Source: a phage. Taken from it: a DNA stretch of 64,000 nucleotides. The position numbers and the translations under genes are program-made. The stretch is from NCBI GenBank assembly GCA_024790105.1, contig GCA_024790105.1_3053.1. One strand, written 5' to 3'. Of the stretch, positions 11,963 through 13,507 are shown piece after piece. The notes under the pieces are model-generated. The model worked only from the letters and a program-made list of their open reading frames with translations. It did not search any database and had not been told where the DNA came from. Positions within the stretch are counted from its first letter, which is position 1. The number at the start of each line of letters is the position of its first letter.

Positions 11963-12511
11963 ACCTAAGAAAACATCTACACTGCGTTGGTACCATTGTA
12001 AATCAAGATGTCCATTACGCACATTGAACTGATAGAACATGTGGCAAGGAGGAAGAGCCATTTGATTGATTTCAGCTGGATTCCACGCCGACACAATTTG
12101 ACGCCTATCACTTGGTAGTTTTTTAATACGATCAATAACTTCTACAATTTGGTCTACACCGCCAAAATCACGCCATTGTTTTCCATAAATTGGACCAAGT
12201 TCACCACTATGATATCCTAGGTCTTTAGCCTGGTTTTCATAGTTATCGTCCCAAATAGTTTTACCTTGAATAAGACTACCATGAGTGCGAAGACGTAAAT
12301 CATTAACATTGGTAGAACCGGAAATAAACCATAGAAGCTCAGCAATGCAAGCTTTCCAGGCGAGCTTTTTGGTTGTTACCGCAGGAAAACCTTTGGTTAA
12401 ATCCCAACGCAATTTAGTACCGAACAAAGCAATTGTTCCTGTGCCCGTTCGGTCATCGGTTTCGTAGCCATTTTCAAAAATGTCTTTAATTAAATCTTGG
12501 TATTGTTTCAT
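11963..12511 (-). CDS. td: thymidylate synthase, exon 1
   Basis: MKQYQDLIKDIFENGY...QRSVDVFLG; conserved TS N-terminal region with active-site PPCH. Confidence 0.9.
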
Positions 12512-12555
12512 TTAGTACCTTATATAAATTATAATACATTTTATGAAGCTAATAA

Positions 12556-12903
12556 TTAATACGGTTTAGCATCAAATTTTCTCTCAATTTCAGGCGTGAA
12601 ATATAATTCTTTACCGCGTTTGGAAAAGCGACCAATAATATGATAATTATTCTCATCAAACGTGATATTACCAATATCCATAGCTTTCAACCAAATATCG
12701 ATATTTCTATCCAGCTTTATGTCAAAATTCCAATACGGAGAACTATTACCAAAAATACTGCAAGCGGATTCAGTGAAACAACTGCTATAAATCTTGTCTT
12801 TAGGAACTACTAATTGATAGACGCCTTTAATAAACTGAGGACCCTGCCACTTTGGCTGTTTCGCGTCTTTTTCTAATAGAATAGGGTAATAATTAAAATT
12901 CAT
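12556..12903 (-). CDS. hypothetical protein encoded by an insertion between frd and td
   Basis: ORF of about 115-119 aa (first ATG at 12903, upstream GTG at 12915); no recognised motif; start overlaps the extended frd 3' end. Confidence 0.45.
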
Positions 12904-13507
12904 ATTTTCCGCCACGCGTTATTTCATTTTTATATACTGATTCCGTAAGGGTTGTTACTTCATCTATTTTATACCAATGCGTTTCAACCATTTCACGCTT
13001 GCTTATATCATCAAGAAAACTTGCATCTAATTGAACCGTTGAATTAACACGATGCCTTTTAACGATGCGAGAAACAACTACTTCATCTGCATAAGGTAAT
13101 GCAGCATATAACAGAGCAGGCCCGCCAATTACACTTACTTTGGAATTCTGATCAAGCATAGTCTCGAATGGTGCATTAGGGCTTGACACTCGAATTTCGC
13201 CGCCAGAAATGTAATCTATATATTGCTCCCAAGTAATATAGAAATGTGCTAAATCGCCGTCTTTAGTTACAGGATAATCACGCGCAAGGTCACACACCAC
13301 AATATGGCTACGACCGGGAAGTAATGTAGGCAATGACTGGAACGTTTTAGCACCCATAATCATAATTGTACCTTCGGTACGAGCTTTAAAATTCTGGAGG
13401 TCCTTTTTAACTCGCCCCCATGGTAAACCATCACCTAAACCGAATGCTAATTCATTAAAGCCTTCGACGGTTTTAGTTGGAGAATAAGCGAATACCAATT
13501 TAATCAT
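12893..13507 (-). CDS. frd: dihydrofolate reductase (with 11-codon C-terminal extension relative to T4)
   Basis: 204 aa; MIKLVF...[11 protein letters not shown]... DHFR fold sequence; the remembered T4 end ...SVYK is followed here by [11 protein letters not shown]. Confidence 0.85.

Follow-up and report, generated by a model that had tools for sequence, protein, structure and literature searches.

The 64,000-nucleotide stretch of phage DNA analyzed here (contig GCA_024790105.1_3053.1, the whole of which is called the window) comes from a mosaic T4-like phage (Tequatrovirus) in which the dihydrofolate reductase gene frd and the thymidylate synthase gene td are separated by a 416-bp segment bracketed by two copies of AAATGAAA and carrying a single open reading frame (ORF). 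This ORF is the already known and annotated gene td.1, which most T2/T6-like phages have and T4 lacks, and nothing points to a new kind of system. Comparison of the junction with that of other T4-type phages favors the interpretation that the td.1 segment was acquired by lateral capture into a previously fused frd/td junction, to which we give a probability of roughly 0.55, over the alternative that td.1 is ancestral and was deleted repeatedly, which is possible but clearly less probable.

The genes of this region are on the minus strand of the window, in the order frd, the ORF of 115 or 119 codons, td exon 1, a group I intron with I-TevI, and td exon 2, and a 6-kb probe of the window had its top database match at 96% identity over 87% of the probe. 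An earlier note, made from the letters of the window, had described an insertion relative to T4 located exactly at the overlap of frd stop and td start and bounded by a duplicated AAATGAAA; both the placement and the positions of the copies (12922-12929 and 12506-12513) hold, and the two copies, read on the minus strand as 12929..12922 and 12513..12506, are 416 bp apart from start to start. In T4 the frd TGA does overlap the td ATG, within TATAAATGAAAC, and Frd has 193 amino acids (aa) with the C-terminus SVYK, whereas frd of the window (12893..13507, minus strand; 97.9% identity to T4 frd by tblastn over residues 1-193) has 11 additional codons after SVYK, giving 204 aa, and td starts at 12511, 381 nt past the extended frd stop and thus at the distance of about 380 bp reported before. 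Td and Frd residues 1-193 match T4 and the left edge of the segment matches the T4 junction, with its ATGA coupling, up to AAATGAAA; the 416 bp then separate the two genes, which in T4 overlap at frd stop and td start, and td of the window has its own Shine-Dalgarno sequence and a promoter-like element.

From left to right on the minus strand, the junction contains a run of A residues (12927..12931; five in the window and three in T4, T2, and most td.1-bearing phages by sequence comparison), the left copy of AAATGAAA (12922..12929), which is identical to the frd-stop/td-start junction of phages of the fused type, an 8-nt filler TAACGCGT (12914..12921; TAGCTACT in the divergent allele of metagenome contig L043), and GGCGGAAAAT (12904..12913), which is homologous to the terminal frd codons of metagenome contigs L013 and L014 (GGTGAAAAGCG and GGTGAAAAACG, respectively). 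The td.1 coding sequence follows at 12556..12903 (minus strand) with 115 codons of PHROG 1928 from the ATG annotated in T2H and T6, or at 12556..12915 with 119 codons from an alternative GTG, and after a spacer (12514..12555) the right copy of AAATGAAA (12506..12513) provides the functional start context of td with its ATG at 12511. The ATG in the left copy starts only a dead mini-ORF (ATG AAA TAA), and in our reading this copy is probably the relic of a resident td start that was cut short; likewise GGCGGAAAAT appears to be left over from a donor-type frd tail and now to provide td.1 with its Shine-Dalgarno region. The repeat by itself is not significant, as AAATGAAA is the usual Met-Lys start context and common: the window has 21 copies against 15.5 expected, a number reached in 10 of 100 shuffles, and on this strand the 8-mer occurs about once per 3.8 kb. 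It gains weight only by the comparison with other phages.

The 115-aa product of the window equals the T2 sequence, and with the 119-aa query tblastn gave 99.2% for T2H, T6, and T2. The gene is named td.1 in the entries of T2H and T6 (AY262132.2 and AY262134.2) and RB32ORF229c in RB14/RB32; in T2H and T6 it likewise separates frd from td and is flanked by the same repeats, and the window differs from T2 in having, like RB3, a 5-A frd (encoding the 204-aa Frd) plus the td intron with I-TevI. By tblastn td.1 was detected at 90% identity or more in 363 phage records and at less than 60% identity in 227 more, as one copy per genome at a constant position and with no other copy in the window, whereas the T4-type fused frd/td junction was found in 32 records only (T4 strains, RB55, RB59, vB_EcoM_112, G28, F1, FN, FL12, G2133, HY03, SG1, JEP6, and FL18). 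It had been proposed that the same spacing in reference T-even genomes would mark the segment as ancestral; T2 and T6 do share the spacing, which establishes td.1 as a widespread, annotated gene but does not settle its ancestry.

Outside Tequatrovirus a td.1 homologue lies directly 3' of frd, usually overlapping the frd end, in at least seven distant genera of the Tevenvirinae (Kanagawavirus ZX14, Mosugukvirus PM2, Jiaodavirus KP17, Marfavirus VAC36, Gelderlandvirus AKM_NP4, Moonvirus CF1, and Winklervirus Kc304) and also follows frd in L013 and L014, with 63-66% identity of their td.1 to that of the window; td.1 was located between frd and td in 9/9 non-Tequatrovirus loci examined with the td.1 query. 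Most of these loci have another gene between td.1 and td, a td.1 paralogue according to hhalign (probability 99.4%, E = 3.5e-21), present at L004 2817-3176, L005 2808-3155, L007 2790-3143, L008 2309-2659, L009 2287-2634, L010 2314-2688, and L013 4332-4673. It carries an inserted PTIxxYKxNPxKY segment and overlaps td.1 by about 17-23 nt. Some arrays additionally hold a 68-aa gene (orf68; L013 4670-4879, L007 3148-3354), and Shigella phage sb1 (L021), whose Frd is about 84% identical to that of the window, has a third allele, frd-orf68-td without td.1, in which orf68 (2082-2288) has 77-78% identity with the gene that immediately precedes td in L013 and Marfavirus VAC36. The ATG of sb1 orf68 overlaps the frd stop in AAATGAGC. 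In the frd-td.1-paralogue-(orf68)-td arrays of Kanagawa-, Marfa-, Moon-, Winkler-, Gelderland-, and Mosugukvirus td.1 thus likewise follows and overlaps frd and has the same motifs as in the window, but the arrays also contain the paralogue and sometimes the 68-aa gene, whereas Tequatrovirus retains td.1 alone and sb1 orf68 alone. The gap between frd and td is thus a small variable slot whose contents come from a shared set of three genes.

The evidence for lateral capture comes from the structure of the left junction and from the disagreement between gene trees. The fused junction has the form GT(A/G)TA(T/C)AAATGAAA(C/A) in T4, WG01 (Dhakavirus), VR7 (Gaprivervirus), and RB69 (Mosigvirus); WG01, VR7, and RB69 all have the ...VYK*/ATGAAA overlap, and in the frd tree they group with Tequatrovirus at 86% bootstrap. 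In td.1-bearing Tequatroviruses the left junction reads GTATAT-AAATGAAA-TAACGCGT-GGCGGAAAATATG, and at the same place L013 and L014 have GTATAT-GGTGAAAA(G/A)CG-(A)TG, where the Val-Tyr codons lead directly into the frd tail and td.1. The Tequatrovirus junction therefore contains two frd ends in tandem, the resident VYK with its stop codon and a donor-type tail G(G/E)K.., which is the trace expected of an illegitimate join just inside the resident td.

In the td.1 tree, L013, L014, and Tequatrovirus form a group with 99% bootstrap, to which ZX14 joins at 100%. In the frd tree, by contrast, L013, L014, ZX14, and VAC36 group at 94% with Tequatrovirus outside, and in the td tree L013 and ZX14 group at 92%. 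The identities agree with this discordance, being 66% (window-L014) and 52% (L014-ZX14) for td.1 and 49% (window-L013) and 61% (L013-ZX14) for frd, and as the distances to the outgroup PM2 are equal (40-41%), the pattern is not explained by a faster rate in ZX14. L013, which overall has about 79% nucleotide identity to Enterobacter phages, has a td.1 and a paralogue that are equally far from their ZX14 counterparts (50.5% and 51.3%), suggesting that td.1 is native there and that the transfer would have been directed into Tequatrovirus. The 5' end of td, ATGAAACAATA(C/T)CAA, is present in 11/13 lineages compared, and such conservation would make a homologous crossover on the right side easy.

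On the basis of these comparisons the following course of events is proposed. The ancestor shared by Tequatro-, Dhaka-, Gapriver-, and Mosigvirus would have had frd and td fused, with the TGA/ATG overlap in TATAAATGAAAC. In a mixed infection an ancestor of Tequatrovirus may then have recombined with a phage of an Enterobacter-phage-like lineage related to L013 and L014, of which ZX14, assigned to the genus Kanagawavirus, is the nearest relative checked. The right crossover would have been homologous, in the conserved 5' end of td, and the left one illegitimate, 6 nt into the resident td, leaving ATGAAA, the 8-nt filler, the terminal codons of the donor frd, and td.1. The outcome would be the addition of 416 bp between copies of AAATGAAA, for which neither a transposase nor a homing nuclease is required, and in the sublineage of the window a slip adding AA would carry Frd through the relic into the donor-type tail. 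The earlier note had proposed that AAATGAAA was duplicated on insertion; the comparison does favor a gain at a fused junction, but a target-site-duplication mechanism is not needed, because one illegitimate crossover 6 nt inside td together with one homologous crossover in td yields the duplicated AAATGAAA. T4 would either have retained the fused state or have lost td.1 again by recombination between the repeats, both routes yielding the same sequence. In a review of T4-related genomes, junctions of imported DNA lacking transposon signatures were described and illegitimate recombination was proposed (Petrov et al. 2010, PMC2993671). The gene gains treated there likewise involve imported DNA beside core genes without a transposon signature; unlike those cases, both joints are readable here at the nucleotide level and the donor lineage can be approximately named.

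Several observations weigh against capture. The td.1 family is old at this position, following frd in at least seven other genera, so that vertical presence with repeated loss is possible, and the direct repeat of 8-9 bp would let an identical deletion recur. The extra 18 nt of the 5-A form correspond to six in-frame codons relative to L014, and the extended frd could therefore be ancestral; L043, with a 5-A run and the filler TAGCTACT, keeps the extended frd frame open with different codons (VYKNEIATGGKYEF), and in all this frame is open in two divergent alleles. No close donor was detected, as the nearest td.1 sequences are 63-66% identical and none in the range of 67-90% occurred in the collections searched, including IMG/VR and JGI metagenomes. 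Alleles of td.1 in Tequatrovirus-like phages are already old, with a synonymous divergence (pS) of about 0.45, so that the gain, if real, would be ancient and the T4 state may well be a secondary loss. Furthermore, the region is mosaic, and the trees are neighbour-joining trees of proteins of 100-200 aa with few taxa.

The main alternative is that td.1 is ancestral in the clade of Tequatro-, Dhaka-, Gapriver-, and Mosigvirus and that recombination between copies of AAATGAAA removed it independently on the way to T4 and in the sister genera, the 204-aa Frd with its tail overlapping td.1 being the old state from which a slip of 2 nt gave the 193-aa form. We regard this as possible but doubtful. 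It would account for td.1, usually with its tandem paralogue, following frd in Kanagawa-, Mosuguk-, Jiaoda-, Marfa-, Gelderland-, Moon-, and Winklervirus as well as in L013 and L014, for the Frd tails of 1-12 residues that overlap td.1 in those phages, and for the 5-A form being in frame with a tail of the L014 type while the L043 frame is open with other codons. Retention of another member of the array, orf68, by sb1 is what differential loss predicts, the frd and td flanks of T4 differ very little from the flanks in phages that carry td.1, with a pS of 0.07 in frd and 0.15 in td exon 1, and the T4-type junction is found in 32 records versus about 363 with td.1. Deletion between short direct repeats is also well established in T4. 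This scenario requires, however, three or four identical independent deletions, or introgression, and it leaves unexplained the nesting of td.1 in the L013/L014/ZX14 clade (99-100%) against the frd and td trees at equal outgroup distances. Moreover, the 18-nt insertion in the frd tail would by chance have to include the 8-mer of the td start, which on this strand occurs about once in 3.8 kb. The simpler statement that td.1 is ancestral and was deleted in T4 is insufficient, since RB69, VR7, and WG01 share the fused junction and the td.1 tree is discordant, and lateral capture is therefore retained as the favored interpretation.

Two further lines of argument on the age and origin of the segment were rejected. 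Reading the lower diversity of td.1 as evidence that it arrived recently conflicts with the L042/L043 allele and its pS of about 0.45, and the test itself is invalid because the flanks can import divergent alleles from genera without td.1. The possibility that the spacer between td.1 and td is what is left of orf68 or the paralogue was considered, but only a short and unconvincing similarity, GG(T/G)(A/G)CTA, was seen.

The extension of frd, which the earlier note had described together with the insert, has another cause. Phages T2, T2H, FriedrichMiescher, Ozark, teqskov, and RB33 all have the same segment and the 3-A form TATAAATGA, which yields a 193-aa Frd, as do most segment-bearing phages, whereas the window and RB3 have the 5-A form TATAAAAATGA. 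The two extra A residues put the TGA out of the frd frame, so that Frd reads on for 11 codons and ends 8 nt inside td.1. The 11-codon extension is thus best read as a separate homopolymer event and not as a product of the segment. The 5-A form was counted with a 53-mer able to seed only on this form and occurs in at least 28 phage records, including RB3, RB5-10, RB14, PhiZZ30, and slur03/08/14. A tally of extended frd genes from tblastn coverage was dropped, as G29 covers '1-204' and yet has a 193-aa frd. A second homopolymer, 5' of the td.1 ATG, varies between GGCGGAAAATATG and GGCGGAAATATG (at 1195-1203 of L023, which is G29, and in L025, L026, L039, and L041), which alters the spacing of the ribosome-binding site to the td.1 start codon.

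The placement of the segment had also been likened to that of a homing endonuclease gene. According to this explanation a selfish element, either a free-standing homing endonuclease gene or a small transposon, would have targeted the frd/td overlap and duplicated an 8-bp target, as the precise placement between two important genes and the 8-bp direct repeat might suggest. The BASEL phage records name the gene 'putative homing endonuclease', and the region is rich in such genes, I-TevI being 0.7 kb off and mobE and segG nearby in T4. However, no GIY-YIG, HNH, LAGLIDADG, PD-(D/E)xK, EDxHD, or other Pfam, NCBIfam, or PADLOC family was found in Td.1 or in 44 members of its family, and the beta-rich model of the 115-aa protein has no nuclease-like structural match in the PDB. 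The segment has no terminal inverted repeats, its ends showing only 8-nt AT-rich chance inverted matches, and no transposase gene, td.1 being the only ORF. It occurs as one copy per genome at a fixed position, within a stable syntenic family in many genera, and purifying selection on it is strong, its protein being 93-100% identical, whereas homing endonuclease genes usually decay. The seg and mob genes are likewise small genes that some close relatives have, and others lack, between conserved genes, but td.1 differs from them by the lack of a nuclease motif or fold, by conserved synteny, and by strong purifying selection. A selfish element is therefore very unlikely, and the label in the BASEL records has no support.

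I-TevI lies at 11094..11831 within the td group I intron, and its co-conversion range extends up to about 2 kb (PMC2790892), so that the td.1 locus, about 550 bp from the I-TevI insertion site, is inside this range. The intron and td.1 are unlinked in their distribution, as td.1 occurs without the intron in T2, the intron without td.1 in T4, and the two together in the window and RB3. Exon 1 of td (11963..12511, minus strand) is itself mosaic, differing from T4 at 87 of 549 positions with some blocks matching FriedrichMiescher and Ozark instead, and the intron, I-TevI, and exon 2 (10635-11960, the reading frame ending at 10635) are 98% identical to T4; the intron thus lies in an exon background unlike that of T4, even next to the insertion site. 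An Rfam scan of 10400-13700 at E <=1 did not report the td group I intron, presumably because the I-TevI ORF splits it.

The remaining explanation, that the ORF is a chance open frame in a non-coding spacer, may draw on the lack of any database family giving td.1 a function and on records such as that of T2 (LC348380) that leave it unannotated, but it is already refuted by the substitution pattern, with 0 nonsynonymous versus 2-17 synonymous differences among six phages, and also disfavored by homologues down to 30% identity that retain the motifs QxKW, HGIY, and GRFxKxG, by the match to PHROG 1928, and by a confident structural model. In these six phages the Td.1 protein is identical although pS reaches 0.27 (nonsynonymous divergence, pN, 0), and against the divergent allele of metagenome contigs L042 and L043, which has 94% amino-acid identity to the window, pS is 0.42-0.46 and pN 0.032. 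It is beyond doubt that td.1 is a real coding gene under strong purifying selection. A C-terminal variant of 117 aa, ending in ...KPLII, was seen in L026 and L027.

The ORF had been described as a 119-aa frame lacking a recognizable motif; it is a real gene, of 115 aa from the annotated ATG, and no named motif could be added. Residues 4-111 of the 115 match phrog_1928, a family of unknown function (E = 8.4e-36). No match was found in Pfam, NCBIfam, or PADLOC for Td.1 or any of the 44 family members, in Pfam and NCBIfam not even at E up to 10, and the best E in a PDB sequence profile search with Td.1 was only 0.17. A profile search of 1.84 billion proteins gave only 41 clusters: two fragments of 37 and 49 aa and 39 proteins with a single domain and a length of 95-139 aa. 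The family shares the motifs QxKW, (H/K)G(I/V)Y, and GRFxKxG....F, all present in Td.1 of the window; among the 44 sequences W19, G91, K95, and G97 are invariant and Q16, G27, Y29, F93, and F102 at least 90% conserved. AlphaFold modeling from the alignment of these 44 sequences (predicted local distance difference test score, pLDDT, 89.9; predicted template modeling score, pTM, 0.82) predicts three strands, a helix, and three strands, and Td.1 would thus be a compact beta-rich domain of 115 aa. Structural matches to Td.1 in BFVD were uncharacterised T4-type phage proteins only. A literature search on td.1, RB32ORF229c, and phrog_1928 found no published function, and a paper that cites the entries of T2H and T6 makes no mention of td.1.

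Our best guess is that Td.1 serves the frd-td nucleotide-precursor module as an accessory that the phage can dispense with. A more specific proposal, which we consider improbable, is that Td.1 and its tandem paralogues represent an unrecognised fold and act as an accessory or regulator of the dihydrofolate reductase-thymidylate synthase (DHFR-TS) pair in the complex for deoxynucleoside triphosphate (dNTP) synthesis, or as a counter-defence factor protecting this pathway. If true, such a role would account for the retention of td.1 between frd and td in many genera under purifying selection, and yet for its dispensability in T4.

As to expression, td.1 is probably translated from the ATG at 12903 with GGCGGA, derived from the donor-type frd tail, as ribosome-binding site, and td would no longer be translationally coupled to frd but would use its own AAGG (12521..12518) located 6 nt 5' of its ATG. 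The TATAAT-like element noticed before upstream of td is present at 12533..12528 (minus strand) and is part of a promoter-like element, GCTTCA-N10-TATAAT (12549..12528), whose GCTTCA (12549..12544) resembles a MotA box, imperfectly, with AGCTTCA rather than TGCTT(T/C)A. The pattern GCTT(T/C)A-N10-13-TAnnnT occurs 25 times in the window against 9.3 expected, with none of 100 shuffles reaching 25, and the element upstream of td is a candidate MotA-type middle promoter of this gene. The pattern is also found at, for example, 21195-21219, 43160-43183, and 49777-49800, consistent with many middle promoters in the window. In L042 and L043 the spacer between td.1 and td is just 13-15 nt long and lacks the promoter-like piece of about 29 nt. 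A sigma-70 promoter scan did not call the TATAAT upstream of td, as there is no -35 element, and the spacer showed no Rfam family and no stable RNA structure (z = -0.27).

Td.1 is small, strongly conserved, structurally unmatched, and tied to the DHFR-TS module, which makes it a reasonable experimental target. The GenBank names for td.1 are misleading and call for an annotation clean-up: besides 'putative homing endonuclease', the unsupported product names 'putative glucose-1-phosphate adenylyltranseferase', 'dihydrofolate reductase', and 'reductase' are in use, and the misnamed records are MZ501066, MZ501089, MZ501113, MZ501047, MN580668, OR125554, OQ466432, PP526941, and OK274152. T4, although the reference, represents the minority arrangement at frd/td among its close relatives. 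The mode of such gene gain was left open by the 2010 review of T4-related genomes (PMC2993671), and the frd/td locus offers an example, readable nucleotide by nucleotide, of how a gene may be added beside core genes of T4-type phages without the machinery of a mobile element.

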